Shown: positions 7,002-59,364 of the stretch, piece after piece | How positions within the stretch are numbered: the first letter of the stretch is position 1 | How the letters are laid out: every line of letters starts with the position of its first letter | Assembly: GCA_963703125.1 (NCBI GenBank) | Contig: OY969790.1 | Location: 2,575,832-2,639,831, forward strand | Source: an uncultured Flavobacteriaceae bacterium | GTDB lineage: Bacteria; Bacteroidota; Bacteroidia; Flavobacteriales; Flavobacteriaceae | Reading direction: 5' to 3' | Length of the DNA: 64,000 nucleotides | Notes under the pieces: generated by a model | Told to the model about the DNA's origin: nothing | Seen by the model: only the letters and a program-made list of their open reading frames with translations | Database searches by the model: none | Made by a program: the position numbers and the translations under genes

Positions 7002-7672
7002 AATCAACCTCTTCTTATTATAAAAAATCCACCAATAAAGATTCTTTTAGTCTAAATTTCCTATAAAGCATGAATAATAGCTTGATATGATTTTCAAAAA
7101 AAATCAAATAGTTTTAGGTATTTAGGAAACTGAGGTCAAAAGCGTTAAGTTCATTTTTCATTTAAGTGCTTTAAAGAATATTTATGCTTCGGTGATTTTT
7201 CGATAATTTATTGAGAAATTTTGCATAAAGCCTTGAAACATAAAAAACGATTAAATTTTCAAGGTACAAGCTATGTTATTATAAGACTTGTGAAATATCC
7301 CCTTATCATATATGAATTTCTTACTCCTTTTGAAAGAAAATGTATTGAGTTTAACTTAGCTTGACAATTTATTTACCATTAATCAATATTTGACCATTTT
7401 TGGGACAAATGGAACGCCCGTTCATCGATTGGCTCCGCAATATCGGTAATTGACAGATAATCGATAAACGGTGCATAATAACGAAATAACTATATCTACC
7501 CTGAAAAACCAAGTACATTTATCGATGAAATGCTTTGATGGCAATTTCATTTTCTTCCCCCATTAAAATTAACTTGAATTATTTCGAAAAGGAAAATCCT
7601 ATATATAGAGAGCCTATTGAAATAATTTATTTTCACAATAAATCAAAAATCAGGTTAACAAATGCCAAACCA

Positions 7673-9043
7673 ATGACCAATGTGCTACTATTAACTTCCA
7701 ATATTTATTTCTTGGCAATTTTTTCGGCTGTAATGACATTTCTGGTGTCTACCAAGATACCTTTATATCCGGTAATTATCTATGTTGCCGAAAAAAAGAA
7801 ACTAATGGATGTGCCCTTGGAGCGTAGTGCCCATAGCACTCAGGTTCCGAATCTGGGAGGTTTGGGATTGTTCATAACGTTCTCCTTGACCCTGATAGTC
7901 CTAAGTCTTATGACAGATTTGTCTTCGGTGGATTTGATAAAGATCAATGCGCTCATGGCATCGACCATTATCCTTTTATTTTTGGGAATAAAGGATGATT
8001 TAGTCCTGATATCACCACTAAAAAAACTTATAGGTCAATTAGTTTCGGCCGCAATTGTTATTTTCTTATCCGATGTACGTATAGTTAGTCTTGAAGGTCT
8101 CCTGGGTATTGGTGAATTGCCCTATTTTTTATCCGTTGTGTTTTCTGCTTTTGTCTTTATTTTGGTCATCAACGCTATTAATCTCATTGATGGCATTGAT
8201 GGTTTGGCCGCTTCCATGGCAATAGTTGCAAGTTCTGTTTTTGGATTTTTCTTTATTGTCAATGGCCACTACCTGATGACGCTAGTGTCATTTATTTTAG
8301 TTGGTGCACTCGCTGGTTTTTTGAAATATAATTTATCGAAGTCGCATAAAATATTCATGGGCGATTGTGGCTCTATGCTAGTCGGATTCTTATTGGCATA
8401 CCAAGGAATGAATTTTTTAATATATAATTCCCTAGAAACATCTACGCACTCCCTAACAAATGCCCCAATAATCCTATTAGCGATTTTATCATTTCCCCTC
8501 TTGGATACTTTGAGAGTATTCGCAATACGGATAAGGCAAAAACGCAGTCCGTTTAGTGCCGATCGCAATCATATCCACCATCGACTTTTGAATTTGGGAT
8601 TTACCCATATTAATGCAACGCTGCTACTCTCCGTTTGTGCGATTTTCACTATTGGTATAGGGCTTTCCTTAGAAGGGTTGAATTTGCATCTTCAGCTACT
8701 GTTTATTGTTTGCTCAGGTATTTTACTCTATTTATTTCCATTTTTGAAGATATTTGATAGAAGGAAATACTTAAATCTTCAATCGCAAGTGCAGGCCAAA
8801 GTTTCCAAAACCATGGAAGGAATAAAAATCAGCGAAACTATAATGCAATCTCCAGAAAATATAAATAGCGGAAAGGGGTATACAGGTGACATTGTAGTCG
8901 AAGTATTTACCAAATCTGCGAACAACGGTAATAATGGTGAAGTAAAGGAAAAGGTTACAAGCAATCCCAAAATACTATCCAATAGACATACTGTGGTCAG
9001 TGAATTGACGAAATCCCCAAAAAAAGAGAATATTCAATTTTGA
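7673..9043 (+). CDS. Polyprenyl-phosphate HexNAc-1-phosphate transferase (MraY/WecA family, GT4 superfamily) with a roughly 100-aa hydrophilic C-terminal tail
   Basis: The ORF is open from 7535. Family-like sequence begins at MTNVLLL (ATG 7673). The protein is multi-TM, and INAINLIDGIDGLA and MGDCGS motifs are present. Confidence 0.8.
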   Translation: MTNVLLLTSNIYFLAIFSAVMTFLVSTKIPLYPVIIYVAEKKKLMDVPLERSAHSTQVPNLGGLGLFITFSLTLIVLSLMTDLSSVDLIKINALMASTIILLFLGIKDDLVLISPLKKLIGQLVSAAIVIFLSDVRIVSLEGLLGIGELPYFLSVVFSAFVFILVINAINLIDGIDGLAASMAIVASSVFGFFFIVNGHYLMTLVSFILVGALAGFLKYNLSKSHKIFMGDCGSMLVGFLLAYQGMNFLIYNSLETSTHSLTNAPIILLAILSFPLLDTLRVFAIRIRQKRSPFSADRNHIHHRLLNLGFTHINATLLLSVCAIFTIGIGLSLEGLNLHLQLLFIVCSGILLYLFPFLKIFDRRKYLNLQSQVQAKVSKTMEGIKISETIMQSPENINSGKGYTGDIVVEVFTKSANNGNNGEVKEKVTSNPKILSNRHTVVSELTKSPKKENIQF

Positions 9044-9145: not shown

Positions 9146-10021
9146 ATGAAAGGAATAATACTGGCGGGAGGATCAGGCACAAGACTTTACCCTATAACCC
9201 TATCCGTAAGCAAGCAGTTATTGCCTGTTTATGATAAGCCAATGATATATTATCCTCTTTCAGTTTTGATGATAGCGGGGATTCGAGACATTCTAATAAT
9301 AACAACGCCCCATGATCAAAAATCCTTTATTAATTTGTTGGGCGACGGCTCTCAGGTTGGATGTAAATTTCAGTATGCCATACAGCCCGAACCCAATGGT
9401 TTGGCTGAAGCTTTTATTATTGGAGAGGATTTCATCGGTAAAGATAAAGTGGCCCTTATTTTAGGGGATAATATTTTTTATGGCAGTGGGTTGGGGAAAT
9501 TGCTTCGTAGTAAAACTGATATCGAGGGTGCTTCAATTTTCGCTTATCCCGTCAATGACCCTGAACGGTACGGCGTAATAGAATTTGATAAAAATGAAAA
9601 GGCTCTAAGTATAGAAGAAAAGCCAAAACACCCAAAATCTTCTTATGCAGTTCCCGGGCTGTATTTTTATGACAACAAAGTGATTGAATATGCCAAACAA
9701 GTCCAACCATCGGCAAGAGGAGAAAAAGAAATCACAACGCTCAATCAATTGTATCTTAAAACGGGGAAATTGGAAGTGGGTGTTATGACCAGGGGAATGG
9801 CCTGGCTGGATACTGGAACAGTAGATGCAATGGATGACGCTTCCGAATTTGTAAGGGTAATGGAGAAGCGAACCGGAACTAAAATTGCATGTATTGAGGA
9901 AATAGCGTATTTGTATGGCTATATAAACAAGGAACAGGCGATTGAAGCTTCTAAGAGGTATGAGAAGAGCGGATATGGCGAATACATTAGAAAGGTTATT
10001 TCAACAGAATGGAAAAAGTAA
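9146..10021 (+). CDS. rfbA: Glucose-1-phosphate thymidylyltransferase
   Basis: MKGIILAGGSGTRLYPIT at the N-terminus, and the 291-aa length is typical of RmlA. Confidence 0.95.
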   Translation: MKGIILAGGSGTRLYPITLSVSKQLLPVYDKPMIYYPLSVLMIAGIRDILIITTPHDQKSFINLLGDGSQVGCKFQYAIQPEPNGLAEAFIIGEDFIGKDKVALILGDNIFYGSGLGKLLRSKTDIEGASIFAYPVNDPERYGVIEFDKNEKALSIEEKPKHPKSSYAVPGLYFYDNKVIEYAKQVQPSARGEKEITTLNQLYLKTGKLEVGVMTRGMAWLDTGTVDAMDDASEFVRVMEKRTGTKIACIEEIAYLYGYINKEQAIEASKRYEKSGYGEYIRKVISTEWKK

Positions 10022-10425
10022 AGATCATTGATCTTCCAAAAATATTAGATCCAAGAGGAAACTTGAGCTTTCTTGAAAGTGGCAACCATATTCCGTTTGA
10101 GATTAAAAGAACGTATTGGATCTATGATGTTCCCGGTGGTGAGATTAGGGGCGGCCATGCCTTTAAAGAACAAAATGAGTTTATTATAGTGTTATCAGGA
10201 AGTTTAGACATCATTATTTTTGATGGTAAAAAGGAGAAAAAGTTTTCATTGAACAGATCATATTATGGACTTTATATCCCAAACGGACTTTGGCGTCATA
10301 TGGAAAATTTTGCAACCAATACACTTGCCTTAGTAGTCTCAAGTACGTCATTTAACGAAAATGACTATATAAGGGATAAAAATGAATTCCTAAAAGTGAA
10401 ACTAGATGAAAATTTCAGTATTTGA
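10009..10425 (+). CDS. FdtA/QdtA/WxcM-type dTDP-4-keto-6-deoxyhexose 3,4-ketoisomerase-like cupin (variant His motif)
   Basis: 138 aa with LPKILDPRGNLSFLE and RGGHAFKE. It overlaps rfbA by 13 nt. Confidence 0.75.
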   Translation: MEKVKIIDLPKILDPRGNLSFLESGNHIPFEIKRTYWIYDVPGGEIRGGHAFKEQNEFIIVLSGSLDIIIFDGKKEKKFSLNRSYYGLYIPNGLWRHMENFATNTLALVVSSTSFNENDYIRDKNEFLKVKLDENFSI

Positions 10426-10819
10426 TTGTTCACTGATTGAACTACCCCGAATTAAAAATAGGGCGGGCAATATTACGCCAATTGAGAATAACTTGGAAAT
10501 TCCTTTTGAAGCAAAGCGAATATTTTATTTGTACGATATTCCCGGGGGAGAAAGCAGGGGTGCACATGCCCATAAAGAATGTCATCAATTCTTAATAGCT
10601 GCTTCAGGCAGTTTTGAAGTGCAATTGGATGATGGGAAGGTTAAAAAGACAGCGATGCTAAATCAACCTTATCGAGGGTTGCATATACCCCCTGGCATAT
10701 GGGCATCTGAGGTGAACTTCTCCTCCGGGGCTATTTGCTTGGTGTTGGCCTCTCACAAATATTCAGAGAGTGATTATATAAGGAATTATGAATTGTACTT
10801 GACCCTTTTTAATAAATAA
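10406..10819 (+). CDS. FdtA/QdtA-type sugar 3,4-ketoisomerase (canonical HAH motif)
   Basis: 137 aa with RGAHAHKE. It is a paralog of the preceding ORF and overlaps it by 20 nt. Confidence 0.8.
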   Translation: MKISVFDCSLIELPRIKNRAGNITPIENNLEIPFEAKRIFYLYDIPGGESRGAHAHKECHQFLIAASGSFEVQLDDGKVKKTAMLNQPYRGLHIPPGIWASEVNFSSGAICLVLASHKYSESDYIRNYELYLTLFNK

Positions 10820-11107
10820 GTTGGTTGCTGATATGGTCATCATTAATACTAAAAACTGCATTTATTAAAAAGATAAGGTCTTAATGAACGAGTGGGTTAT
10901 GGGTAAGAAATAACTTTAGGCGAGTAATCTGAACAAACATGTTAGCTGCTTAATTGGAGATGTGGAAATTTTTGATGCTTAAATAGTGAAAAAACTTAAA
11001 ATGTAATCTACTGTTGAGCTAAGAATGAACGAAAAATGCTTCTATGACTGATTTGGTTACGCTTTTCGTTATTTTAAAACTCTAAAATAATATAAAACAA
11101 GGATGAA

Positions 11108-11665
11108 ATGAAATTTAGAAAGGAGATTATAGATGGTATTTTGCCTACAAATCATTACGGATATCATTTTAGGTTGGTTGAAATTGAGGATGCAGAATTT
11201 ATTCTGTCTTTAAGAAGTAATGAAAAGCTTTCCAGACATATCAACACAACGAGTGCGGAATTAGATGAGCAAATTAATTGGCTGAAGGAATATAAGGTTC
11301 GTGAAAAAAACGGTGAGGATTTTTACATATTATGTTTAAAAGAAGATAAAGAAACAAAGCAAGGGGTAGTCAGAATTTATAATATTAACGGAACAGAGTT
11401 TGAGATTGGGAGTTGGGTTTTTAAATCAGATGCAGACCCCAATGTAGCTATTTTGGCAGATTTGTTTACTTTTTCATTAGCTTATGAGCAACTGAACTTA
11501 AAAACATGTAACGCTTCTGTGAGAAAGGCCAATAAGCGTGTTTTGTGGTATACTAAATCATTTGATCCCATCTTAAAAATGGAAGATGAATTGAATTTTT
11601 ATTTTGAGATTGGCTATGATAATTATAAAATCCAACGAGATAAACTGCTTAAAATGCTATTATAG
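11108..11665 (+). CDS. GNAT-family N-acyltransferase (RimJ/RimL-like)
   Basis: 185 aa. The layout FRLVEIEDAEFILSLRSNEKLSRHI is typical of GNAT N-termini. Confidence 0.65.
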   Translation: MKFRKEIIDGILPTNHYGYHFRLVEIEDAEFILSLRSNEKLSRHINTTSAELDEQINWLKEYKVREKNGEDFYILCLKEDKETKQGVVRIYNINGTEFEIGSWVFKSDADPNVAILADLFTFSLAYEQLNLKTCNASVRKANKRVLWYTKSFDPILKMEDELNFYFEIGYDNYKIQRDKLLKMLL

Positions 11666-11682
11666 GGAATACAAATATTTTC

Positions 11683-13242
11683 ATGACTATTAAGCATTCG
11701 AAAAATATAGGAATTATGGATACCAAGATGAAAATTAATTTAATAGAATATTTTGAAAGGACTGTTGACTTATTGCCAAACAAATTAGCCGTACAGGACC
11801 AAAACTCTAGTTTGTTGTTTAAAGAACTTCAACAAAAAGCGAAAAATCTTGGTGCCCATATTTCGAATAGAACCTCCAAAATCAATAGGCCGATTGCTGT
11901 GTTTTTACCCAAATCCAATGAAGCCCTTATTGCTCTCATTGCTTCTTTATATAGTGGTAACTGCTATGCACCTCTTGATACGAAAAATCCAATGGCCAGA
12001 ATAAAAACAATATTAAAGGCCATGGAACCCTCATGTATTGTTACCAACAACAATTTTATAGGAACTATTAAAGAATGCGATCTTCATATAGAAGTGCTTA
12101 ACTTGGATGATATTGACCTTAATATTGATAAAAGGGGCAATTTTAATTATGAGGACTGTATTGATACCGATCCGGCTTATATTATGCACACATCTGGGTC
12201 AACAGGTGTTCCCAAAGGGGTTGTTATTTCCCATAGATCAATTATAGATTATACACATTGGTTAATACACACTTTTGACATCACAAAAGATGAAATTATT
12301 GGCAACCAAGCTTCGTTTATTTTCGATAATTCAACCTTGGATATTTATCTAATGATGTTCAAAGGCGCATCGCTCTACCTCATTCCGGACCATGTTTTTG
12401 CTTTTCCAATAAAATTGATTGAATACCTGCAAGTGCACCATATTAATTTTATTTTTTGGGTTCCTTCGGTTATGGTCGGGGTTGCCAATTCAAATGCTCT
12501 TAACAATCTAAAAGTTCCTTTATTAAAGAAAGTTCTGTTTTGTGGCGAAGTTATGCCGACAAAACACTTGAATTATTGGATTAGTATGTTGGATAAAGAT
12601 GTTTTATATGCCAATTTATATGGGCCAACGGAAATAACAGATGTCTGTTCTTATTACATAATAGACCGTGAGTTTCTCGATACAGATGTTTTGCCAATTG
12701 GAAAAGCCTGCCGAAATACGGATATAATAATTCTAAATGATGAAAATAAGGCATGTAAAGTTTTTGAACATGGTGAGTTATGTGTCCGAGGTTCCTCATT
12801 ATCTTCTGGATATTGGAACAATCCTGATAAGACAAATGCGGCTTTTGTACAAAATCCTTTAAATACGTCTTATCCTGAAAAAATCTATCGGACCGGGGAC
12901 ATTGTTTTCATGAATGACAAATCTGAAATTATATATGTTGGAAGGAAAGATTTTCAAATTAAACATTTAGGATATCGAATTGAATTAGGTGAAATAGAGC
13001 ATGCTGTTTTAAGAGTGTTCAAATCTATTGCCGCTTGCGTTCTTTATGATCAAGACAAGAATGAAATTGTTTTGGCATACGAATCCCCCGAAGAAATATC
13101 AGTTGCCGATTTTAGGATTAAGCTGAATAATGAATTGGCAAAATATATGATCCCTAATAGATACGTAAAATTGGAAAAATTGCCAAAATCCCCTAGCGGC
13201 AAGATTGATAGAAGCTTTATCAAAAAAACTTTGATTGCTTGA
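11683..13242 (+). CDS. Adenylate-forming enzyme (DltA-like / amino-acid adenylation domain)
   Basis: Core motifs HTSGSTGVPKGV, YRTGD and PKSPSGKIDR are present. Confidence 0.85.
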   Translation: MTIKHSKNIGIMDTKMKINLIEYFERTVDLLPNKLAVQDQNSSLLFKELQQKAKNLGAHISNRTSKINRPIAVFLPKSNEALIALIASLYSGNCYAPLDTKNPMARIKTILKAMEPSCIVTNNNFIGTIKECDLHIEVLNLDDIDLNIDKRGNFNYEDCIDTDPAYIMHTSGSTGVPKGVVISHRSIIDYTHWLIHTFDITKDEIIGNQASFIFDNSTLDIYLMMFKGASLYLIPDHVFAFPIKLIEYLQVHHINFIFWVPSVMVGVANSNALNNLKVPLLKKVLFCGEVMPTKHLNYWISMLDKDVLYANLYGPTEITDVCSYYIIDREFLDTDVLPIGKACRNTDIIILNDENKACKVFEHGELCVRGSSLSSGYWNNPDKTNAAFVQNPLNTSYPEKIYRTGDIVFMNDKSEIIYVGRKDFQIKHLGYRIELGEIEHAVLRVFKSIAACVLYDQDKNEIVLAYESPEEISVADFRIKLNNELAKYMIPNRYVKLEKLPKSPSGKIDRSFIKKTLIA

Positions 13243-13350
13243 GAAAAAGTTAAAGATGTATAATTATTGCCCCATTAAGTTCTAAAATGGCTAAAACCAT
13301 TTAGTAGCCAATTTGGGACGCATTGAAAAAGTTAAACTAATCGTAAAAAA

Positions 13351-13590
13351 ATGAAAGAAAAAATACTCCATTTATTATCGGAAATAAGACCGGAATGTGA
13401 TTTTGAATCGTCTAATAATTTTATTGAGGAAGGTTTGTTGGACTCTTTTGGCATCGTAAGCCTTGTAGTCTCACTTGATGAAGAATTTGGTATTTCTATT
13501 GATGGTACGGATATTTTACCAGAGAATTTCTTAAGTGTTGAGAGTATTAGCCAATTATTGATTAGAAATAGCGTCAAGAATGAACTTTAA
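13351..13590 (+). CDS. Acyl/peptidyl carrier protein
   Basis: 79 aa with a phosphopantetheine-Ser context in GLLDSFGIVSL. Confidence 0.7.
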   Translation: MKEKILHLLSEIRPECDFESSNNFIEEGLLDSFGIVSLVVSLDEEFGISIDGTDILPENFLSVESISQLLIRNSVKNEL

Positions 13591-14647
13591 GTTTCGCAAT
13601 AAGAAAATCACAGGGATTCTTACGATCTTACCTGAAAATGAGGTTGACTTTGAGGATGAAATTGAAAACTATGATTTTTCAAGAAGTCAATCTATGAAGT
13701 TAAAATTGATAATGGGCTATGGAAAGCGCAAGGTCGTTACAGAGGGTACTACTATCTCTGATTTGTGTGTTTATGGACTAAACTACCTTTTTGAAAGTGG
13801 CCAACTTGATAAAGACTCAATAGATGCAATAGTGTTGGTAACGCAATCTCCAGATTATTTCGTTCCCGCAACTAGTCACATTATTCATGGAAGGTTAGAT
13901 TTAAAAAAGGATATGATTTGTTTAGATATCAATCACGCCTGCTCTGGTTATCCTATAGGCCTTATGCAGGCATTTATGTTATTGGAACAAGATGATATAA
14001 ATAAAGTCTTAGTGCTGAATGCAGATATATTAAGTTCAAAGGTCTCCATTCATGACAGAGGTAGCAGGCCACTTACAGGTGATGGAGCGTCAATTACAAT
14101 TGTCGAAAAAGATTTGGAGAATAGTTTTATCTATGGTGCTGTAATGGCCGATGGAAAAGGATCAGAATCTTTGATGATTCCAGCTGGAGGTTTCAAAATG
14201 CCATCAACTGCCAAGACTGCCGAATTGATGACTGATATTCATGGTAATGTTAGGGCCTTAGATCACTTTGTAATGAAAGGTGATGATGTTTTTAATTTTG
14301 TACAAAGAGAGGTTCCGCCAATGATCGATAATTTACTTCAAAAAGCGGGAATTGATGAGGAGAAAATAGACTACTACTTGTTTCATCAGCCGAACAAGTT
14401 TATGTTAAAAAAACTAGCGGACAAAATGGTGATTCCATATGAAAAGATGCCGAATAATATAGTTGAAAATTTTGGCAATGCCGGAGGGGTCTCTGTACCT
14501 ACTAACATCACCTATAATCTAGGTGATAAACTTTTGAAGAATACTTTTTTGGTTTGTTTGGCCGGTTTTGGAGCTGGGTTAAGCTGGTCATCTTTGATAA
14601 TCAAATTAGGGAAATTGAATTTTTGTGAAACACTTTATTTTAAATAA
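13580..14647 (+). CDS. 3-oxoacyl-ACP synthase III (FabH-like) family protein
   Basis: A Cys-His-Asn triad context is present in NHACSGY, FHQPN and GNAGGVS. Confidence 0.85.
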   Translation: MNFKFRNKKITGILTILPENEVDFEDEIENYDFSRSQSMKLKLIMGYGKRKVVTEGTTISDLCVYGLNYLFESGQLDKDSIDAIVLVTQSPDYFVPATSHIIHGRLDLKKDMICLDINHACSGYPIGLMQAFMLLEQDDINKVLVLNADILSSKVSIHDRGSRPLTGDGASITIVEKDLENSFIYGAVMADGKGSESLMIPAGGFKMPSTAKTAELMTDIHGNVRALDHFVMKGDDVFNFVQREVPPMIDNLLQKAGIDEEKIDYYLFHQPNKFMLKKLADKMVIPYEKMPNNIVENFGNAGGVSVPTNITYNLGDKLLKNTFLVCLAGFGAGLSWSSLIIKLGKLNFCETLYFK

Positions 14648-14652
14648 AATAT

Positions 14653-14868
14653 ATGGAACAATTAATATCAAAAATGAGGGAAATTTTAGAAGTTGATACT
14701 ATTGAAATTAATGATTCACTTTCTTCATTTGATGGGTGGGATTCATTGACCATTTTGATGGTCATTGAATTTTGTTCTAGTGAATATGGAATATCTTTAA
14801 GTGCAGATGAAATTCAAAATTCGCAGACAATCAAAGGTTTGAAAGAACTGATCGATTCAAAATCATAA
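14653..14868 (+). CDS. Second acyl carrier protein
   Basis: 71 aa with GWDSLTILMV (DSL motif). Confidence 0.65.
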   Translation: MEQLISKMREILEVDTIEINDSLSSFDGWDSLTILMVIEFCSSEYGISLSADEIQNSQTIKGLKELIDSKS

Positions 14869-15012
14869 CGGGAAGTAAAATCTATTCGGCATACTTAAAG
14901 TTGGGTGAGATTTCTTTGAAATGATACCATTGCTGCAACCCACTATCGCAAATTTAATACACCTAGTCAAGCTGGAGTGTTCAATCATTGATAAGAGTGT
15001 TTTACAATAGAA

Positions 15013-16137
15013 ATGGACTTACTTAACAATAAAGAAAAGGTGATAAAATTTTTAGATCTTCAAAAAATTAATGCTCAATACGCCTCTGAATTAAAGCAAG
15101 CAGCATATAGAGTTATAGATTCTGGCTGGTATTTGATGGGTAATGAACTTAATTCATTCGAACAAAATTACGCTTCATTCTGTAATGTAAAGTATGCACT
15201 TGGAGTGGCCAATGGTTTAGATGCACTGCGTCTTATTTTCAAAGGCTATATTGAGTTGGGGGTAATGAAAAAGGGAGATGAGGTTATAGTGCCTGCAAAT
15301 ACATATATTGCCTCTGTTCTGGCCATAACAGATAATGGGCTCATACCTATTTTTGTAGAGCCAGATATTCAAACTTTAAATTTAGATTCCAAAAAAATTG
15401 AAGCCGCTATTTCAAAAAGAACCAAGGCTATTTTAACTGTACATCTATATGGACAGATTTCCACCGATCAGAGGATGCTAGACGTATGCCACAAATTTAA
15501 GTTGAAGTTAATAGAGGATGGTGCGCAGTCCCATGGTGCAAAATGGGAAGGTAAAATTTCAGGTGCAATCGGGGATGCAGCAGGGCATAGTTTTTACCCT
15601 GGAAAAAATTTAGGTGCGTTGGGCGATGCAGGAGCTGTTACCACCAATGACAAAGCTTTGGCAGATACCATTATGGCCCTTAGAAATTACGGGTCGCATA
15701 AAAAGTATGAGAATTTGTACCAAGGTTTGAATTCTCGTTTAGATGAAATACAAGCGGCATTTTTAAATGTCAAATTAAAATATATAAATGATGACATTTT
15801 AGGACGAAGAAAGGTAGCGAACTTCTATTTGAACAATATAAGAAATACCTCATTAATACTTCCGAAAGTTATTAATGATAATGGCCATGTTTGGCACCTA
15901 TTTGTGGTCCTTACAGAAAACAGGACCCAATTAAATTCCTATTTAGAGAAGAAAGGTATTCAATCCCTAATACATTACCCGATACCACCTCACAAGCAAG
16001 AGGCTTTTAAAGAGTTTAATAGTTTAAATTTTCCAATTACCGAAAAGATACATAAGGAAGTATTGAGCCTACCCATAAGTGCATGTATGACAACCACGGA
16101 AATTAATTACGTGGTTGAGGCACTAAATAATTATTAA
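15013..16137 (+). CDS. DegT/DnrJ/EryC1/StrS-family PLP aminotransferase (FdtB/QdtB-like nucleotide-sugar aminotransferase)
   Basis: 374 aa with [16 protein letters not shown] (PLP-Lys region). Confidence 0.9.
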
Positions 16138-17621
16138 TGGTCCAAAAAAGCGTTAATAAAGATAGTTATAGGCAAATAATGAAGGCTACTTCCATTTTTG
16201 GAGGTGTTCAGGTTTTTAATATTATAATATCAATAATTAGATCCAAAGTAATTGCCATTTTATTGGGCCCTTCTGGTATGGGTATCATGGGTCTTCTGAC
16301 CTCTACAACAAGTTTGATAAGTTCTTTGACCAATCTTGGTTTAGGTACAAGTGCGGTTAAAGACATTGCGGCAGAAGCGCAAAGTAATGATCCATTGCGG
16401 ATTGCCCAAATCGTTATAGTCGTGCGGCGTTTGGTTTGGGTAACGGGACTGGTTGGTGCGTTGGTCACTTTTTTTGCGGCACCTTGGCTGAGTGACCTTT
16501 CCTTCGGAAATTCCGATTATTCCATTGCCTTTAGATGGCTTTCCCTTACACTTTTGTTAAATCAATTGACCAGCGGTGAGTATGTTTTATTACAAGGCCT
16601 TAGAAAGTTAAAACTTCTTGCCAAAGCCAATTTGGCAGGGTCGGTTTTGGGTCTATTGTCTTCATTGCCCCTTTATTATTATATGGGTATTAAAGGTATT
16701 GTACCGGCTATGATATTAACGGCGTTGCTTACTTTATTTGTGGTGCAATATTATAGTCAAAAGGTAAAAATTAACAAAGTGAATGTCACTTTAAAACAAA
16801 CAAAAATTCAGGCCAGGGATATGATGGTCATGGGCATAATGCTGAGTTTAAGTGGCATTATGATTATGGGTGAATCCTATCTCATAAGGATTTTTATTAG
16901 CAATACAGGGGGTATTGATGAAGTTGGGTTGTATAATGCTGGTTTTGCAATTATTACCACCTATGTGGGGTTGGTTTTTACCGCCATGGGTACCGATTAT
17001 TACCCTCGACTGTCAGGAGTAGCTTCCGATAATCAAAAGGCAATTGTATTGATAAATCAGCAGGCGGAAATAGCGGTTTTAATTTTAGCACCTATTTTGA
17101 CGGTCTTCTTGATTTTTGTTGATTGGGTTGTAATACTTCTATATTCCGAACAGTTCATTGCGGTAAGTGCAATGATTTACTGGGCAGCTTTGGGAATGTT
17201 CTTTAAGGCCGCAAGCTGGTCAATTGCATTTATTTTTCTTGCTAAAAGTGCAGGAAAACTATTCATTTGGAGTGAACTGGCTTCGATTTTAACATTATTG
17301 ATATTGAATTTATTGGGATATTATTTTTGGGGCCTCACAGGATTGGGATTTTCATTTATGCTTTCTTATTTACTCTATCTCATTCAAGTTTATATATTGA
17401 CAAATTTAAAATACGGATTTAAGTTCAGTACAGGGTTTTTGAGAATATTTGGCATTCAATTTATGTTGGCACTTATCTGTTTTGCCACAGTAAAGTTGAT
17501 TCCTACGCCATATACGTTTGTTCTGGGAATCCCAGTAATTATTGGTTCTGCATGGTACTCCCTGAAAGAATTGGACAGAAGATTGGGTTTAAAGAAGATA
17601 TTCAAAAATTTCAAAAAATGA
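16137..17621 (+). CDS. wzx: Wzx-type polysaccharide flippase (MOP superfamily)
   Basis: 494-aa multi-TM protein in a polysaccharide-locus context. Confidence 0.75.
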   Translation: MVQKSVNKDSYRQIMKATSIFGGVQVFNIIISIIRSKVIAILLGPSGMGIMGLLTSTTSLISSLTNLGLGTSAVKDIAAEAQSNDPLRIAQIVIVVRRLVWVTGLVGALVTFFAAPWLSDLSFGNSDYSIAFRWLSLTLLLNQLTSGEYVLLQGLRKLKLLAKANLAGSVLGLLSSLPLYYYMGIKGIVPAMILTALLTLFVVQYYSQKVKINKVNVTLKQTKIQARDMMVMGIMLSLSGIMIMGESYLIRIFISNTGGIDEVGLYNAGFAIITTYVGLVFTAMGTDYYPRLSGVASDNQKAIVLINQQAEIAVLILAPILTVFLIFVDWVVILLYSEQFIAVSAMIYWAALGMFFKAASWSIAFIFLAKSAGKLFIWSELASILTLLILNLLGYYFWGLTGLGFSFMLSYLLYLIQVYILTNLKYGFKFSTGFLRIFGIQFMLALICFATVKLIPTPYTFVLGIPVIIGSAWYSLKELDRRLGLKKIFKNFKK

Positions 17622-23017: not shown

Positions 23018-24898
23018 ATGTGTGGAATAGCAGGATTTGCAAATTTTGAAGATAATATAGGGCTGGCACTTAAGGCCAATGAGATACAGAAACATCGAGG
23101 GCCTGATGCTCAAGAGACCTGGTCCGACGGGTTTATTGCGTTGGCCCACCAGCGATTGTCGATTATTGATTTGGATAAAAGATCAAATCAGCCATTTGGA
23201 AAAGGTGATTATGTAATTATCTACAATGGAGAACTTTATAATTTTAAAGAATTAAGAAAGGAGCATCTCGGGGCAATTGAGTTTAAGACCACTTCAGATA
23301 CTGAAGTTGTACTTGAAATGTATATTAAATTTAAGGAAGATTGCCTGGTCTATTTTAAAGGAATGTTTTCATTCTGCATTTACAATATCCTGGCAAATGA
23401 AGTTTTCTGTGCAAGAGATCATTTTGGTATAAAGCCATTCTATTATTATTACCAGGATAATCAATTCGCTTTTGCATCGGAATTAAAGACTTTGGTGAAT
23501 TTGCCAAATTTCAGCAGATCCATTAACAAGAAGTCTCTGATTGCCAGTCTGAATTATTTATGGATTCCCGGAAATGAAACAATTTTTGAGCAGATTTCCA
23601 AATTACCTCCCGCCCACTATATAAGATTTGATAAACAAGGGGTATTTGAAAAAAAACAGTACTGGAGCTTAGAGACAAAAACGGTACATAAAAACGAAGA
23701 AGCTACAATCGATGATTTGAATTCAGAGTTTGAAAAAACAATTTCAAGGCATATGATAGCCGATGTACCCGTTAGCTCCTTTCTGAGCGGCGGTTTAGAT
23801 TCCTCACTCATTTCGGTGGCGGCTAAAAAAATCAATCAAAACATTTCAACCTATACCATTGGTATGGAAACCAAGGACAAGAAGATCGAAAGCATGCCCG
23901 ATGATCAAAAATATGCCAAAATTTTAGCTGATTTAAATGAATTTGATCACCACGAAATAATTATCAATTCAAACATTACCAGTGAACTGCCGGCAATCGT
24001 ACGAACGTTGGACGAACCTATAGGAGATCCAGCGGCAATAAATACCTATTTGATTTGTAAAGCGGCAAGGGAGAAAGGGGTTAAAGTCCTATTGTCAGGT
24101 ATGGGTGCGGATGAAATATTTTGCGGATATAGAAGGCAGAAAGCACTGATAATGGCCGAAAAATATAAGGCGGTTCCATCAGTAATTAGAAAGCTGATAA
24201 AGCAAGCCACGGATTTCCTTCCCGTAAAAATTGGAAATAGGGGCTTGAGATTGGCAAGATGGTCTAAAAAATTCATATCATTTGCCGAAAAACCAACGGA
24301 AGAGGCCTATCGCATTAGCTATTCCTATTATGGCAAAGAAGAATTGCTCGCATTGTTAAAGAAAGATAGCGAGATACAAATTGAGGAAATATACAATGAG
24401 CATAGAACCATTTTTGGATCGGCTTATAAGGGTGACATTATAAATCAAATGTGCCATACCGACATAAACATGTTTATGGTAGGCCTTAATCTAACGTATA
24501 CCGATAGGGCATCCATGGCAGCATCCGTTGAGGTCAGGGTTCCGTTCATAGATAAAGATTTCATTGAGAATGCTATGAAAATAGATGGAAAGTATAAATA
24601 CCACAACGGGGAATCCAAGTATATTCTTAAAAAGATGGCCGAGAAATATTTACCAAAAAAAATAATCTACAGACCAAAAGCATCTTTTGGTGCCCCAATT
24701 AGATCTTGGATATCGGGGGATTTAAGGCATATGATCGATGAAAACCTTTCTAGGTCCGCCATTGAGAAGAGAGGTTTATTCAATTATGAATTCATAAGCG
24801 GATTAATTGAAAATGACCGGGCCGGTGTTGAGGATAATGCCTATAGAATATATCAATTATTGACCATTGAATTATGGTTTAAAGAATTTATAGATTAA
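23018..24898 (+). CDS. Asparagine synthase (glutamine-hydrolysing)-family amidotransferase
   Basis: MCGIAGF (Ntn Cys2) and the SGGLDSS PP-loop are present. Confidence 0.9.
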   Translation: MCGIAGFANFEDNIGLALKANEIQKHRGPDAQETWSDGFIALAHQRLSIIDLDKRSNQPFGKGDYVIIYNGELYNFKELRKEHLGAIEFKTTSDTEVVLEMYIKFKEDCLVYFKGMFSFCIYNILANEVFCARDHFGIKPFYYYYQDNQFAFASELKTLVNLPNFSRSINKKSLIASLNYLWIPGNETIFEQISKLPPAHYIRFDKQGVFEKKQYWSLETKTVHKNEEATIDDLNSEFEKTISRHMIADVPVSSFLSGGLDSSLISVAAKKINQNISTYTIGMETKDKKIESMPDDQKYAKILADLNEFDHHEIIINSNITSELPAIVRTLDEPIGDPAAINTYLICKAAREKGVKVLLSGMGADEIFCGYRRQKALIMAEKYKAVPSVIRKLIKQATDFLPVKIGNRGLRLARWSKKFISFAEKPTEEAYRISYSYYGKEELLALLKKDSEIQIEEIYNEHRTIFGSAYKGDIINQMCHTDINMFMVGLNLTYTDRASMAASVEVRVPFIDKDFIENAMKIDGKYKYHNGESKYILKKMAEKYLPKKIIYRPKASFGAPIRSWISGDLRHMIDENLSRSAIEKRGLFNYEFISGLIENDRAGVEDNAYRIYQLLTIELWFKEFID

Positions 24899-24899
24899 T

Positions 24900-27038
24900 A
24901 TGAAACAAATTACCCAAAAGCTAGGTTCCGGAGATATGATCATTCAAGAAATTCCTTATCCACAATTAGGCAGGAACATGGTTATGGTCAAAAATCATTT
25001 TTCTATTATAAGTGCCGGTACAGAGGGCTCAACGGTTCTAGCAGCTCGTAAAAGCTTATTGGGAAAGGCCAAGGAACGTCCACAACAGGTAAAACAAGTG
25101 TTGGATACCCTAAAAAAGCAAGGCCCTCTACAGACTTATAGGGCGGTAATGAAAAAGCTGGATGCATATTCACCTCTGGGATATAGCTGTTCGGGTGAGG
25201 TTGTGGAAGTGGGCGAAGGGGTAACCGAAATTCAAGTTGGTGATATGGTGGCATGTGCCGGTGCGGGATACGCAAATCATGCAGAAATGGTGACAATACC
25301 TCTTAATTTATGCGTGAAAATCGATTATAATGCGAATTTAAGGGATGCGGCCTATAATACCTTGGGAGCCATTTCCATGCAAGGTGTGCGCCAAGCCGAT
25401 TTAAGGGTAGCCGAATCCTGTGTGGTGATTGGGTTGGGGCTGCTGGGTCAATTGGCCTGTCTTATTCTAAAGGCCTCGGGGGTTAAGGTTATTGGTGTAG
25501 ATGTTTCAGAGGCAGCGGTAAAAATGGCAATAGACAATCATGCCGTGGATCTGGGGATCGTCCGGGACTCTTCAGGCATTGAGAATCGAATTATGGCGGC
25601 TACCAATGGGGTTGGTGCCGATGCGGTAATTATAGCCGCGGCAACATCCAGTATTGACCCAATCAATTTTGCTGGTGCCATTTCTAGAAAAAAGGGGAAG
25701 GTAATCGTACTGGGCGCAGTACCCACGGGATTTGATAGAGATCCTTATTGGTACCGAAAGGAATTGGAACTGAAAATGGCTTGTTCTTACGGTCCCGGTA
25801 GATATGATATCAATTATGAAGAAAAGGGGATTGATTACCCCATTGCGTATGTTCGATGGACTGAAAGGAGAAACATGGAGGCATTTCAGTACCTGTTGTC
25901 CACTCAAAAAATTGACATTGGTTACCTAACGACCCATACCTTTGACTTTGAAGATGCTCCCCTTGCTTTTGATATGATAGTGAAAAAGACCGAACCCTAC
26001 ATAGGCATCTCGCTAAAGTATGATGTGTCTAAAAAGCATAAAAGAGAATCCATAGTTGTTAATAAAGAAACTATTAATGGAAAGATAGGCCTCTCTTTTA
26101 TTGGTGCAGGAAGTTATGCCCAAGGAAATTTATTACCGAATATTCCAAATTCAAAGGATATTTCCAAAATAGGAATTCTTACAAACTCAGGAACAACTTC
26201 TAAAAGAGTTGCTGAAAGGTTTGGGTTTAGCTTTTGCGCATCTGATGAATTGGATGTATTGGATGATCGGACAAATACCTTGTTTATTGCCACACGGCAT
26301 GACTCGCACGGAGGTTATGTGCTCAAAGGTTTGAAGGCGAACAAAAATGTCTTTGTAGAGAAGCCGCTTTGCTTGCGCGAATCAGAACTGAATGAAATTA
26401 TAGCGGCAAAAAATCTTTCTGGAAAATCTGTCATGATAGGATTCAATCGTCGGTTTTCTCCTTACTCGCAGACAATCAAATTTGAATTGGGCAGCGGACC
26501 CAAATCAATGATATATAGAATAAATGCGGGTACCATACCACCGGATAATTGGATTCAGGATATGGAATTAGGAGGAGGAAGGATACTTGGCGAAGTTTGT
26601 CATTTTATTGATTACCTCACTTTTATTAACGGCAGTTTGCCCTCAATGGTAGGCGCCCATGCCTTACCAGACCCTAATGGTCTGAATGATACATTGAACA
26701 TTCTGTTAAAATTTGAGAATGGTTCTACCGGCGTAATTGCATATTATGCCAATGGCTCAAAATCGCTTTCAAAAGAGTACGTTGAAATTTATGGACAGGG
26801 CAAAACAGCCATACTAAACGATTTCAAGGAATTGAAGATTTATGGCAGCGGAAAACCTTCAAGCAAAAAATCATTGAATCAAAATAAAGGTCAGAAAGAA
26901 ATGGTAACAGCTTATTTTAATGGGTTGGTAAATGATGGAGAAATTCCTATTCCATTTGAGGAAATCGTTTCCGTTACCAATGCGACTTTCAAAGTAATAA
27001 AATCGATTAAGAATAATGGTCAACAGTTTAGTGTCTAA
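24900..27038 (+). CDS. Bi-domain oxidoreductase (N-terminal MDR/Zn-ADH-like plus C-terminal Gfo/Idh/MocA)
   Basis: 712 aa with two Rossmann motifs, VIGLGLLGQL and LSFIGAGSYAQGN. Confidence 0.8.
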   Translation: MKQITQKLGSGDMIIQEIPYPQLGRNMVMVKNHFSIISAGTEGSTVLAARKSLLGKAKERPQQVKQVLDTLKKQGPLQTYRAVMKKLDAYSPLGYSCSGEVVEVGEGVTEIQVGDMVACAGAGYANHAEMVTIPLNLCVKIDYNANLRDAAYNTLGAISMQGVRQADLRVAESCVVIGLGLLGQLACLILKASGVKVIGVDVSEAAVKMAIDNHAVDLGIVRDSSGIENRIMAATNGVGADAVIIAAATSSIDPINFAGAISRKKGKVIVLGAVPTGFDRDPYWYRKELELKMACSYGPGRYDINYEEKGIDYPIAYVRWTERRNMEAFQYLLSTQKIDIGYLTTHTFDFEDAPLAFDMIVKKTEPYIGISLKYDVSKKHKRESIVVNKETINGKIGLSFIGAGSYAQGNLLPNIPNSKDISKIGILTNSGTTSKRVAERFGFSFCASDELDVLDDRTNTLFIATRHDSHGGYVLKGLKANKNVFVEKPLCLRESELNEIIAAKNLSGKSVMIGFNRRFSPYSQTIKFELGSGPKSMIYRINAGTIPPDNWIQDMELGGGRILGEVCHFIDYLTFINGSLPSMVGAHALPDPNGLNDTLNILLKFENGSTGVIAYYANGSKSLSKEYVEIYGQGKTAILNDFKELKIYGSGKPSSKKSLNQNKGQKEMVTAYFNGLVNDGEIPIPFEEIVSVTNATFKVIKSIKNNGQQFSV

Positions 27039-32599: not shown

Positions 32600-32907
32600 T
32601 AAAAGGAAACGCCCTAATCTCTTTTATGCTAGGAAACATAGTTCATTGAGTAAATTATCATAGGATATTTTCAGCGAAAATAAAGGTATTAATATTAAGA
32701 TGTTGAGGGCCACAAAGTTAAAATTGACAATATGGTTCCGGTAATTCCTATTCTATATTTAATCTATCGCTACGCACTTAATTCTCTGTCATTTCATCCT
32801 ATGTTTGGAAAATACTATAAGGTCTTTATGGCTTTGTTTTAAGGAAAGGCGATTGGATTAGGAATTTGGAAGATGTAAATTCTTTATTTGTAATGAAACG
32901 TTATGTT

Positions 32908-50404: not shown

Positions 50405-50411
50405 AAGTAAC

Positions 50412-59330: not shown

Positions 59331-59364
59331 AACTATTTAAATAATCCCCTAAGTAAACTTTAAG

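Follow-up and report, generated by a model that had tools for sequence, protein, structure and literature searches.

The surface-polysaccharide locus described here carries an acyl cassette that is a five-gene mini assembly line placed inside a 3-amino-3,6-dideoxy sugar pathway. Its most likely role is to assemble, on a carrier protein, an acyl group derived from an amino acid, with which the sugar would be decorated instead of with the usual acetyl. The window, i.e. the whole stretch of DNA analysed, comprises 64 kb, and the source of the locus is a marine flavobacterium. Relatives of the cassette are found in hundreds of Bacteroidota genomes, and no description of it was found in the published literature. 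The comparative set encompassed 88 related loci, and gene context around KAS III was compared in 80 loci. The features of the locus are:

7535..9043, + strand, WecA/GT4-family initiating phosphoglycosyl transferase, context at the locus start (PF00953, 119.8 bits; TIGR02380 wecA, 151.7 bits, under the model cut-off)
9146..10021, + strand, RmlA, glucose-1-phosphate thymidylyltransferase (TIGR01207, 460.8 bits vs cut-off 360.65; PF00483, 249 bits)
10009..10425, + strand, FdtA-family paralogue 1 (FdtA1), a variant (PF05523, 165.5 bits)
10406..10819, + strand, FdtA2, FdtA/QdtA-type dTDP-4-keto-6-deoxyglucose 3,4-ketoisomerase (PF05523, 174.5 bits)
10820..11107, no strand, non-coding gap of 288 nt with stops in all frames, preceding the GNAT-to-ACP2 block
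11108..11665, + strand, FdhC-like GNAT, predicted dTDP-3-amino-3,6-dideoxyhexose N-acyltransferase (PF13302, 35 bits vs cut-off 25.4)
11683..13242, + strand, stand-alone NRPS/DltA-type alpha-amino-acid adenylating enzyme (TIGR01733, 323.5 bits vs cut-off 317.4; PF00501, 199 bits)
13351..13590, + strand, carrier protein 1 (ACP1, DltC-like), predicted aminoacyl carrier (PF00550, 25.4 bits vs cut-off 20.8; serine motif LLDSF)
13580..14647, + strand, condensing enzyme of the KAS III family, in a distinct subfamily spread across Bacteroidota (PF08541 and PF08545)
14653..14868, + strand, carrier protein 2 (ACP2), predicted malonyl/product carrier and GNAT acyl donor (PF00550, 28.8 bits vs cut-off 20.8; serine motif GWDSL)
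15013..16137, + strand, dTDP-3-keto-6-deoxyhexose 3-aminotransferase, DegT family, QdtB/WlaRG type (PF01041, 324.9 bits)
16137..17621, + strand, Wzx-type flippase, context (PF13440 and PF01943)

The placement of nine genes from RmlA to the aminotransferase, all on the + strand, agrees with the sequence-only reading and has strong profile support, the profile matches not being due to chance. The presence of the flippase, the start of which (16137) overlaps the DegT stop, marks a Wzx/Wzy-type polysaccharide locus. Within it the GNAT, adenylase, ACP1, KAS III and ACP2 genes form a compact block with internal gaps of 17, 108, -11 (the ACP1 overlap with the KAS III start) and 5 nt, flanked by gaps of 288 nt and 144 nt. 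The 288 nt gap gave no Rfam match, and a search of it for remnants of accessory genes found none.

The sugar genes are best explained as a predicted dTDP-3-amino-3,6-dideoxyhexose (Qui3N or Fuc3N) pathway. The aminotransferase, the sole one found among the locus ORFs scanned, matches 7N63 (E 2e-132), WlaRG 5U1Z (1.4e-130) and QdtB 3FRK (2.6e-113) in the PDB, and the lysine motif SFYPGKNLG is seen in its translation. FdtA2 matches 5TPU, QdtA 4O9E and FdtA 2PA7, all at about E 1e-29 to 1e-31, while the best matches of FdtA1 are 7N67, 5TPU and FdtA 2PA7. Two FdtA/QdtA-type ketoisomerases had been read from the sequence; both proteins do have the FdtA domain, but in the alignment FdtA1 carries RGGHAF against the canonical RGAHAH of FdtA2, so that the second histidine of the catalytic pair is replaced. 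This His-to-Phe/Tyr change is kept in all FdtA1 orthologues, each of them accompanied by paralogue 2. As had also been read, RmlB is absent: tblastn of the entire 64 kb with the E. coli protein gave nothing (best E 0.11), and the same query located RmlB next to RmlA in three sister loci (L025, L033 and L071).

The enzyme predicted to acylate this sugar is the GNAT. Its only significant match among PDB sequences is FdhC (5KTA, E 2.8e-22), and its AF2 model (pLDDT 93.3) retrieves FdhC as the top Foldseek hit (5KTC, E 3.9e-17, TM 0.84, rmsd 1.7 A), the next-best GNAT folds in the same search being at about 1e-9. FdhC belongs to the GNAT superfamily and N-acylates dTDP-Fuc3N with 3-hydroxybutanoyl (5KTC title). 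The gene lies between the 3,4-ketoisomerase and the 3-aminotransferase, and the best explanation of this position is that it fills the usual acetyltransferase slot. The earlier statement that no left-handed-beta-helix (LbH) acetyltransferase is present holds, as no Hexapep/LbH protein occurs among the locus ORFs scanned and tblastn of the window with PglD-like LbH proteins from sister loci detected no relative. Among the fetched KAS III loci the GNAT appears only together with FdtA and a QdtB-like DegT, and it adjoins FdtA in most contexts of its homologues. When the window and the 80 KAS III loci were clustered, GNAT and FdtA without a PglD-like LbH protein were found in six, a PglD-like LbH protein without GNAT or FdtA in 45, and GNAT and PglD-like LbH together in none; cassettes serving other sugars have a PglD-like LbH transferase in the place of the GNAT. 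The slot between FdtA2 and DegT in related loci always holds the GNAT, with variable acyl-donor genes: the GNAT alone (L087, FdtA-FdtA-GNAT-DegT), with an ACP2-like protein and a FabH-like KAS (L084), with an adjoining ACP2 orthologue and no KAS III (L086), or with the full cassette (the window, L023, L025, L033 and L055).

The donor genes point to an amino acid as the primer. The adenylase scores about 300-324 bits against the DltA models, under their cut-offs, has LgrA, GrsA and DltA as PDB matches, and keeps Asp235 and Lys517; as judged from these features it is specifically an alpha-amino-acid activator, and an amino-acid-primed, gamma-amino-beta-keto acyl group is therefore the best guess. 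ACP1 gives weak DltC and AmcB matches. The KAS III protein falls under the cut-offs of all FabH equivalog models. It retains the triad Cys112/His244/Asn274, but in the alignment Trp32, Arg36 and Arg249 are replaced and a 16-residue insertion is present, features by which it is, at the level of sequence, not a housekeeping FabH. Neither the triad nor Asn247 varies within the family, for which 384 related genome loci were found.

Comparison of the 80 KAS III loci reveals a constant core of KAS III and ACP2, the latter after KAS III in most loci and adjoining the transferase. The upstream modules are swapped: an amino-acid adenylase with an ACP, an FkbH protein with an ACP (with or without MaoC and SDR), or a ligase with Fe-ADH, LuxE/LuxC and an ACP. 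All three are types known as generators of ketosynthase starter units. Many loci of the adenylase type have a gene for an Fmt-like formyltransferase or RimI-like GNAT between adenylase and ACP1, as would fit capping of a free alpha-amine that has no other use. The gene directly after ACP2 is in many loci a FabG-like SDR, consistent with this carrier bearing a beta-keto product. The closest relative of the window cassette (L023) has a capping enzyme, which the window lacks.

A five-step model is proposed. By homology, the dTDP-3-amino sugar would come from RmlA, an RmlB from another part of the genome, FdtA2, perhaps helped by FdtA1, and the aminotransferase of QdtB/WlaRG type; likewise by homology, the adenylase would activate a small alpha-amino acid and load it on ACP1. 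KAS III would then condense the aminoacyl-ACP1 primer decarboxylatively with malonyl-ACP2 to give 4-amino-3-oxoacyl-ACP2, as suggested by the intact Cys-His-Asn triad and the gene context in relatives. The GNAT would move the acyl group from ACP2 to the amine at C3 of the nucleotide sugar, as its homology to FdhC and the co-occurrence of GNAT and ACP2 imply, and the product would enter a Wzx/Wzy-type polysaccharide. We hold the chances of this model as a whole to be about even. The general claim of the sequence-only reading, that the adenylase, carriers and KAS III build a custom carrier-borne acyl group which the GNAT transfers to a 3-amino-3,6-dideoxyhexose, is supported by two independent lines of evidence, the FdhC match and the context of related loci. 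Its choice of a beta-keto, hydroxy or amino acyl group can be narrowed: the adenylase type favors the amino-acid-primed gamma-amino-beta-keto form. For a hydroxy product, reduction would have to come from a housekeeping enzyme. Neither a ketoreductase nor an N-capping enzyme is encoded among the locus ORFs scanned, so the acyl group should keep its beta-keto function and a free amine unless enzymes encoded elsewhere (e.g. FabG) act. Several points count against the model. An uncapped 4-amino-3-oxoacyl thioester should tend to cyclise to a tetramic acid. We know of no characterised KAS III using an aminoacyl-carrier-protein primer, no reported polysaccharide with a gamma-amino-beta-keto or gamma-amino-beta-hydroxy acyl group, and no specificity code matching that of the adenylase (10 residues, DNLFLCLDVK). 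In addition, RmlB is not linked to the locus and the donor of FdhC is an acyl-CoA, not an acyl-ACP.

An unlikely alternative is that two separate building blocks are made. KAS III and ACP2 would be a private FabH system converting acetyl-CoA and malonyl-ACP2 to acetoacetyl-ACP2, which housekeeping FabG would reduce to 3-hydroxybutanoyl-ACP2, and adenylase and ACP1 would supply a separately joined amino acid, the result being a composite group, e.g. N-(3-hydroxybutanoyl)-alanyl. The 3-hydroxybutanoyl group is that transferred by FdhC (PDB 5KTC title), and the L084 arrangement, which has no adenylase, makes a plain C4 donor in the family plausible. N-[(R)-3-hydroxybutyryl]-L-alanyl and N-acetyl-alanyl groups are documented on 6-deoxyamino sugars (PMC3210612), the N-(3-hydroxybutanoyl)-alanyl substituent being known on Qui4N. 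However, this route needs two amide-forming transferases and the window encodes one, and the apparent capping of the amine in relatives would be pointless if the amine bore a second acyl group. Moreover, identity between the window-type KAS III and the FabH-like one of L084 is only about 32%; the window-type protein has lost the FabH 'TGIxER' region besides the three residues named above, and nearly always has a starter module directly upstream.

Less probable still is that the KAS III-like protein does not condense but acts as an acyl shuttle or acyltransferase, taking the aminoacyl group off ACP1, passing it to ACP2 or further along, and leaving the sugar simply N-aminoacylated (e.g. alanyl-Qui3N). 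KAS III-like acyltransferases acting on sugars exist (the ChlB6 and CerJ type), and some KAS III-like enzymes of antibiotic pathways are non-condensing. Such a role would suit the missing ketoreductase, but it leaves the invariance of His244, Asn274 and Asn247, needed for malonyl decarboxylation, and the FabG-like reductases after ACP2 in relatives, which imply a beta-keto product, without a reason, and would make the second carrier protein superfluous. N-(N-acetyl-alanyl) Qui3N is nevertheless a known sugar decoration (PMC3210612). That the GNAT N-acetylates the sugar from acetyl-CoA, or 3-hydroxybutanoylates it from a CoA ester, and that the other four genes modify another polymer residue, a lipid or a small molecule, is improbable: FdhC takes a CoA donor and L087, with no donor genes, indicates that a common CoA thioester can suffice for members of this family of GNATs, yet the cassette sits inside the sugar operon between GNAT and aminotransferase, tightly spaced with the GNAT, the locus encodes no other acyltransferase able to serve it, a PglD-like sugar N-acyltransferase follows the same cassette in the 45 other loci, and an ACP2 orthologue adjoins the GNAT in L086.

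Several known systems come close to the cassette. The FdhC/QdhC 3-hydroxybutanoyltransferases of Acinetobacter nosocomialis O10, E. coli O103, Salmonella O55 and Hafnia alvei accompany the same sugar pathway genes (RmlA-RmlB-FdtA/QdtA-FdtB/QdtB) and, as predicted for the window, it is a small GNAT instead of an LbH protein that acylates dTDP-Fuc3N or dTDP-Qui3N at the C3 amine with a group other than acetyl. To our knowledge, general metabolism supplies these systems with 3-hydroxybutanoyl-CoA, and they lack an adenylase, carrier proteins and KAS III. In the window, by contrast, a dedicated donor factory adjoins the GNAT, which is only about 28% identical to FdhC over the structural alignment (for the genetics of FdhC/QdhC systems, see PMC4869667). 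The wfpC-wfpG genes of Flavobacterium psychrophilum, of the same bacterial family and likewise in a polysaccharide locus, include KAS enzymes and a dedicated ACP that are predicted to assemble a short acyl group, putatively 3,5-dihydroxyhexanoyl on Qui2NAc4N, which a transferase would move from the ACP to a nucleotide amino sugar (PMC6519341). As a precedent for an unusual N-acyl group, cited in the sequence-only reading, this holds up, but the sugar there is a bacillosamine derivative and the transferase is of the PglD type (PMC6519341). It further differs in that a ketoreductase and two KAS are present, an adenylating enzyme and an aminoacyl carrier are missing, the transferase is an LbH protein and the acceptor is a UDP-4-amino sugar.

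In Vibrio cholerae O1, rfbKLMNO of the O-antigen cluster include an ACP and an AMP-forming ligase and provide the tetronate N-acyl group of perosamine. The same set of ligase, Fe-ADH, LuxE/LuxC and ACP lies upstream of KAS III in sister loci (L017-L022, L035 and L040), while the V. cholerae system has no KAS III or amino-acid adenylation and the window has no LuxE/LuxC or Fe-ADH genes. DltA/DltC and stand-alone NRPS A-domain/carrier pairs likewise join a stand-alone adenylating enzyme to a small dedicated carrier. The adenylase and ACP1 have DltA and DltC among their best family matches, and the adenylase shares with DltA the Cys at code position 301; however, the adenylase lies under the DltA equivalog cut-offs with a different specificity code, DltB and DltD are absent, and the predicted destination of the aminoacyl group is a ketosynthase, not an ester on teichoic acid. 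Type II PKS priming (e.g. R1128 ZhuH/ZhuG) also uses a KAS III and a dedicated ACP to make a short beta-ketoacyl-ACP from a selectable starter. PKS starter modules for lactate or glycerate are of the FkbH type, and the FkbH and ACP (with MaoC and SDR) of sister loci resemble them. Unlike PKS priming, the window has no downstream polyketide synthase, and its product would go to a nucleotide sugar, the predicted starter being an alpha-amino acid on a carrier protein.

The block belongs to what is a Wzx/Wzy-type polysaccharide locus, and its nine genes occupy 9146-16137 on the forward strand with the coordinates that the sequence-only reading had given them.

Genes of the block and their family-model matches
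9146-10021, + strand, RmlA (TIGR01207, 460.8 bits against a cut-off of 360.65)
10009-10425, + strand, FdtA1, the first FdtA-type cupin (PF05523, 165 bits)
10406-10819, + strand, FdtA2, the second FdtA-type cupin (PF05523, 174 bits)
11108-11665, + strand, GNAT (PF13302)
11683-13242, + strand, amino-acid adenylation enzyme (TIGR01733, 323.5 against a cut-off of 317.4)
13351-13590, + strand, PP-binding carrier protein ACP1, serine motif intact
13580-14647, + strand, KAS III (PF08541, PF08545)
14653-14868, + strand, PP-binding carrier protein ACP2, serine motif intact
15013-16137, + strand, DegT aminotransferase (PF01041, 325 bits)

A WecA-like initiating transferase is encoded upstream, and genes for a Wzx flippase, glycosyltransferases, an AsnB-type amidotransferase, WecG, WecB and a Wzc-like kinase follow downstream. 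The GNAT, adenylase, ACP1, KAS III and ACP2 genes, here termed the cassette, are separated by 17, 108, -11 and 5 nt and flanked by 288 and 144 nt. The gaps gave no Rfam match, and promoter- and terminator-like sites occur in them at chance frequency. A plasmid origin of the block was rejected, as megablast against plasmids returned no match. Its nearest relatives place the source among marine Flavobacteriaceae. The absence of a left-handed-beta-helix (LbH) transferase and of RmlB, both claimed earlier, was borne out: no hexapeptide protein was found among the scanned ORFs of the locus, the PglD-like LbH proteins of related loci had no tblastn relative in the window, and the best tblastn hit for RmlB in the 64 kb window had an E-value of 0.11, whereas the same query detected RmlB beside RmlA in related loci from other genomes (L025, L033 and L071); RmlB also lies next to RmlA in the related locus L086. 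If the pathway runs, RmlB must therefore come from elsewhere in the genome.

Two further regions of the window carry gene fusions. A 712-aa protein joining a zinc-type alcohol dehydrogenase domain to a GFO/IDH/MocA oxidoreductase domain (24900-27038) is encoded within the polysaccharide locus next to the AsnB-type amidotransferase (23018-24898), and may produce a second modified sugar. The gene at 58191-59330 encodes a family-2 glycosyltransferase that carries a response-regulator receiver domain; it is followed by a second Wzx-like flippase gene (59365-60645), with PAS/FIST histidine-kinase genes upstream (48017-52597), and the 58191-60645 region may represent a second, regulated polysaccharide system.

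The four sugar genes are consistent with synthesis of a dTDP-3-amino-3,6-dideoxyhexose. Very strong matches to three solved structures (7N63, E 2e-132; WlaRG, 1.4e-130; QdtB, 2.6e-113) identify the DegT protein, which contains the SFYPGK lysine motif, as a dTDP-3-keto-6-deoxyhexose 3-aminotransferase of the QdtB/WlaRG type. For each of the two FdtA paralogues, FdtA, QdtA and WlaRB are matches of similar quality (approximately E 1e-30 for FdtA2), and the predicted product is either Qui3N (gluco) or Fuc3N (galacto). FdtA2 has the canonical RGAHAH with its His-x-His catalytic pair, which in FdtA1 is replaced by RGGHAF, so that the second histidine of the pair is missing. The RGGHAF/Y variant is found in the window and in ten related loci (L023, L025, L033, L051, L055, L071, L078, L084, L086 and L087), with FdtA1 proteins 58-86% identical across loci and a canonical FdtA2-type gene always following them. 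FdtA1 may serve as partner in a heterodimer, differ in stereochemistry or form an inactive subunit.

The sole significant sequence relative of the GNAT in the PDB is FdhC (5KTA, 5KTC, 5KTD; phmmer E 2.8e-22 over residues 20-177). An AlphaFold2 model (pLDDT 93) likewise had FdhC as its first Foldseek match (E 3.9e-17, TM 0.84, rmsd 1.7 Å), other GNATs lying near 1e-9, and the title of the top FdhC entry names Coenzyme A and 3-[(R)-3-hydroxybutanoylamino]-3,6-dideoxy-D-galactose as bound products. In Acinetobacter, E. coli O103 and Hafnia, the transfer of 3-hydroxybutanoyl in the Fuc3N and Qui3N pathways is the task of FdhC and QdhC (PMC4869667). With an LbH acetyltransferase absent and an FdhC relative present, the slot of the former is thus taken by the one GNAT lineage known for non-acetyl acylation of such sugars. 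In the window and in most homologues whose context was read, the GNAT is encoded together with fdtA/qdtA and fdtB/qdtB genes, and homology, which also places every gene of the block in its enzyme class, shows the pairing of the GNAT with this sugar. One distant homologue (L082, 38% identity) has different, MBOAT-type surroundings. Its neighbours in L082 and L083 are genes for FkbH, MBOAT, DUF1574, AsnB, NAD synthase, an AMP-binding enzyme and two carrier proteins, an arrangement that resembles Dlt- or alginate-like O-acylation more than a nucleotide-sugar pathway. The adjacency of ACP2 suggests an acyl-ACP donor for the window GNAT, rather than (R)-3-hydroxybutanoyl-CoA, and it is quite probable that the enzyme N-acylates the 3-amino sugar with a group derived from the cassette.

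The adenylase is of the NRPS/DltA type and has LgrA, GrsA and DltA as its best solved relatives. Alignment to GrsA gave the ten-residue code DNLFLCLDVK, in which Asp235 and Lys517 are kept; since these contact the alpha-amine and the carboxylate, respectively, the substrate is expected to be an alpha-amino acid, and the bulky residues F278, L299 and L322 suggest a small side chain. The code matches no specificity code known to us. The DltA models are the next-best family matches after TIGR01733, and an assignment as D-alanine--carrier protein ligase was rejected, as the scores fall below the cut-offs (TIGR01734, 302.9 against 559.85; NF003417, 324.3 against 476). A substrate assignment from the Cys at position 301, common to DltA, was also discarded because the other code positions differ. 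The KAS III protein keeps the catalytic triad of Cys112, His244 and Asn274 as well as Asn247 (E. coli FabH numbering), all invariant in 14 family members, while Trp32, Arg36 and Arg249 are replaced and 16 residues are inserted. These replacements and the insertion, together with scores far under every FabH equivalog cut-off (NF009519, 216.9 against 436; NF006829, 183.6 against 249; TIGR00747, 158.2 against 292), led us to reject a housekeeping FabH; judged by its sequence, the protein is a distinct subfamily and not FabH proper. Among solved structures it is most similar to uncharacterised KAS III proteins from Burkholderia.

A scan for this KAS III subfamily in one genome per species (185,579 species) detected 384 loci, 80 of which were fetched and had their ORFs called, clustered and annotated by cluster. 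Nearly all of the 80 are from Bacteroidota, ranging from marine Flavobacteriaceae to Bacteroides, Prevotella and Odoribacter; L060, from an Aminicenantes MAG, is one of only two with a record not assigned to this phylum. The layout of the cassette is modular across loci. The constant core is a KAS III gene followed by an ACP2-type carrier, and one of three kinds of starter module precedes it. The first, an amino-acid adenylase with ACP1, falls into at least five specificity-code classes, most of which have an Fmt-like formyltransferase or a RimI-like GNAT gene between adenylase and ACP1. The second is FkbH with an ACP, together with a VOC protein or with MaoC and an SDR. The third combines an AMP-ligase and an Fe-ADH with a LuxE/LuxC fusion and an ACP, and is the gene set of V. 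cholerae rfbKLMN. Genes for a GloB-like MBL hydrolase, an AAC(3)-like protein and one or two FabG-like SDRs frequently lie downstream of the core, and a transferase gene comes next. The transferase is a PglD-like LbH protein of the NeuD/PglB/VioB family in 45 loci, which have no FdtA, and the FdhC-like GNAT in six loci including the window, which have FdtA and a QdtB-like DegT and no LbH; no locus among the window and the 80 carries both.

Around further GNAT homologues and in the KAS III loci, the genes found between FdtA2 and DegT show a gradation.

Content of the slot between FdtA2 and DegT
L087: GNAT alone
L084: GNAT, ACP2-like carrier and FabH-like KAS III
L086: GNAT and ACP2 orthologue (63% identical)
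Window: GNAT, adenylase, ACP1, KAS III and ACP2
L023: as in the window, plus a formyltransferase
L025, L033: GNAT, FkbH set, KAS III and ACP2
L071: LpxA/QdtC-like LbH

L086 adjoins L017, a LuxE/LuxC-type KAS III locus without its own ACP2, on the same contig of Maribacter sp. PR1 (JAQPCG010000006, 213-254 kb), where a formyltransferase and a FemAB/Acetyltransf_6-like gene also lie by the GNAT and ACP2 orthologue. With the ACP2 orthologue beside the GNAT in L086 and the KAS III and LuxE/LuxC set in L017, the cassette is thus split over about 10-20 kb in this strain. L034 (KAS III, ACP2 and LbH, no starter module) was judged uninformative, its context being unrelated and apparently rearranged, and a comparison of KAS III phylogeny with starter type was dropped as a test, as co-inheritance of whole cassettes would yield the same pattern.

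In L017-L022, L035 and L040 (Maribacter, Winogradskyella, Formosa and Allomuricauda) the genes ahead of the core encode an ACP, an AMP-ligase, an Fe-alcohol dehydrogenase and a LuxE-LuxC fusion of 827 aa. This is the gene set of the V. cholerae O1 tetronate pathway and suggests a C2-extended hydroxy-acid substituent. FkbH and ACP genes with a glyoxalase/VOC protein, or with a MaoC dehydratase and an SDR, are found in L025 and L033 (with FdtA, GNAT and DegT) and in L026, L028, L030 and L031, and resemble the glycerate/lactate starter modules of polyketide synthases, but are located here in polysaccharide loci. In L044, L058, L059 and L061 (Saccharicrinis, Marinilabiliaceae and Carboxylicivirga) the genes after the cassette encode an acyltransferase-3-like membrane protein, an AsnB homologue, an additional carrier protein of 88 aa and a protein of 421 aa whose HHxxxD motif resembles the one in NRPS condensation domains. 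L044 also has two adenylases in tandem. These loci have the look of a hybrid line of greater length. In L051, L060 and L069 a KAS III gene of the window type is accompanied by a FabH-like one (about 31% identical); each of the two has an ACP and an SDR of its own, which suggests two extension rounds. In the gaps of the window block, tblastn revealed no remnants of the formyltransferase, RimI-like GNAT, SDR, MBL, LbH or FkbH genes of the related loci. After the Wzc-like gene, a 566-aa ORF (32866-34566) with a C-terminal half matching GINT1_N contains a weak methionyl-tRNA-formyltransferase-like stretch (residues ~139-216; PDB 4IQF, E 5e-4; cassette formyltransferases of related loci, E 3e-5); it has no counterpart in the 80 KAS III loci and could be an unlinked capping enzyme for the cassette amine.

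Read most economically, the minimal gene set of the window assigns one job to each gene. The adenylase would load a small amino acid on ACP1, KAS III would use aminoacyl-ACP1 as primer and malonyl-ACP2 as extender to form a 4-amino-3-oxoacyl-ACP2, and the GNAT would pass it on to the amine at C3 of the dTDP sugar. We infer the primer, the extension step and the acyl-ACP donor, and with them the product, and the chances of this specific chemistry, an adenylase-primed 4-amino-3-oxoacyl group, appear evenly balanced. Four observations argue for priming from upstream rather than by acetyl-CoA: the upstream modules are exchangeable and are all of types that generate ketosynthase starter units; relatives contain N-capping enzymes, which imply that the amine of the amino acid is otherwise free; FabG-like reductases come after ACP2 in many relatives and imply a beta-keto product in those relatives; and the window-type KAS III differs in its N-terminal CoA-contact region from the FabH-like KAS III of the adenylase-free L084. 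The weak points of the model are that the FdhC donor is CoA, that an uncapped gamma-amino-beta-keto thioester should be prone to cyclise, that the window lacks the capping enzyme found in its nearest relative, and that no glycan bearing such a group is known to us.

The same genes could make two building blocks, KAS III and ACP2 providing an acetoacetyl or 3-hydroxybutanoyl group to which the amino acid is joined separately. The resulting N-(3-hydroxybutanoyl)-aminoacyl substituent would be of a known type (PMC3210612), but a second amide-forming enzyme would be required, which is absent from the window, and the capping enzymes of the relatives are at odds with this route; we consider it unlikely. 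A KAS III that only moves the aminoacyl group, with no condensation, is improbable given that the decarboxylation residues are invariant in the family and that reductases occur in relatives. That the GNAT draws on a common CoA thioester while the cassette serves another target is very improbable in view of the position of the cassette inside the sugar operon and its co-occurrence with the transferase. A wider proposal, somewhat less likely than not to hold, is that a programmable mini assembly line is common to the polysaccharide loci of Bacteroidota, among them gut Bacteroides, Prevotella and Odoribacter. Its parts would be a starter module that can be exchanged, a single KAS III, an ACP dedicated to it and an N-acyltransferase specific for the sugar, and it would decorate amino sugars with C2-extended acyl groups that the starter defines; in the window this would be a gamma-amino-beta-ketoacyl amide (a statine-like skeleton) with a free amine on Qui3N or Fuc3N.

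The serotype of O-antigens and capsules, phage receptor specificity and immune recognition depend to a large degree on the N-acyl groups that rare amino sugars carry, and for most of the exotic groups we know of no assigned genes. The locus offers a compact and testable five-gene unit joining NRPS-type amino-acid activation, FAS/PKS-type chain extension and nucleotide-sugar tailoring. The KAS III/ACP core occurs in 384 loci, combined with two kinds of transferase and at least three kinds of starter module. Reconstituting one such system biochemically would therefore annotate a large family, predict new glycan chemistry in marine and gut Bacteroidota and provide parts for glyco-engineering of acyl decorations. 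If the proposal is true, an aminoacyl-carrier-primed KAS III would, as far as we know, be a new enzymatic activity, the gamma-amino-beta-ketoacyl group would belong to a substituent class not reported, to our knowledge, from any glycan, and its free amine could make the polymer zwitterionic.

A custom N-acyl group built on a dedicated carrier protein inside a polysaccharide locus is not without precedent. The V. cholerae O1 tetronate genes are known to operate in this manner, and the same has been predicted for wfpC-G of F. psychrophilum (PMC6519341). The window shares KAS III and ACPs with such a Wfp-type module, in which a KAS, an ACP, a ketoreductase and a PglD-like transferase lie beside an amino-sugar aminotransferase, but lacks the ketoreductase and the LbH transferase, whereas many related loci have both an SDR and a PglD-like LbH. 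The window block works like a Wfp-type module but is built differently. Full-text literature searches on the cassette, on amino-acid-primed KAS III and on adenylation/ACP/KAS III genes in polysaccharide loci found only the F. psychrophilum and FdhC precedents and no paper describing the cassette. FdhC-type GNATs were also known beforehand; new are the joining of an FdhC-like GNAT to a donor factory of its own, the amino-acid adenylase/carrier pair that apparently primes a KAS III, and the placing of the window as one variant of a widespread, modular family of Bacteroidota cassettes.
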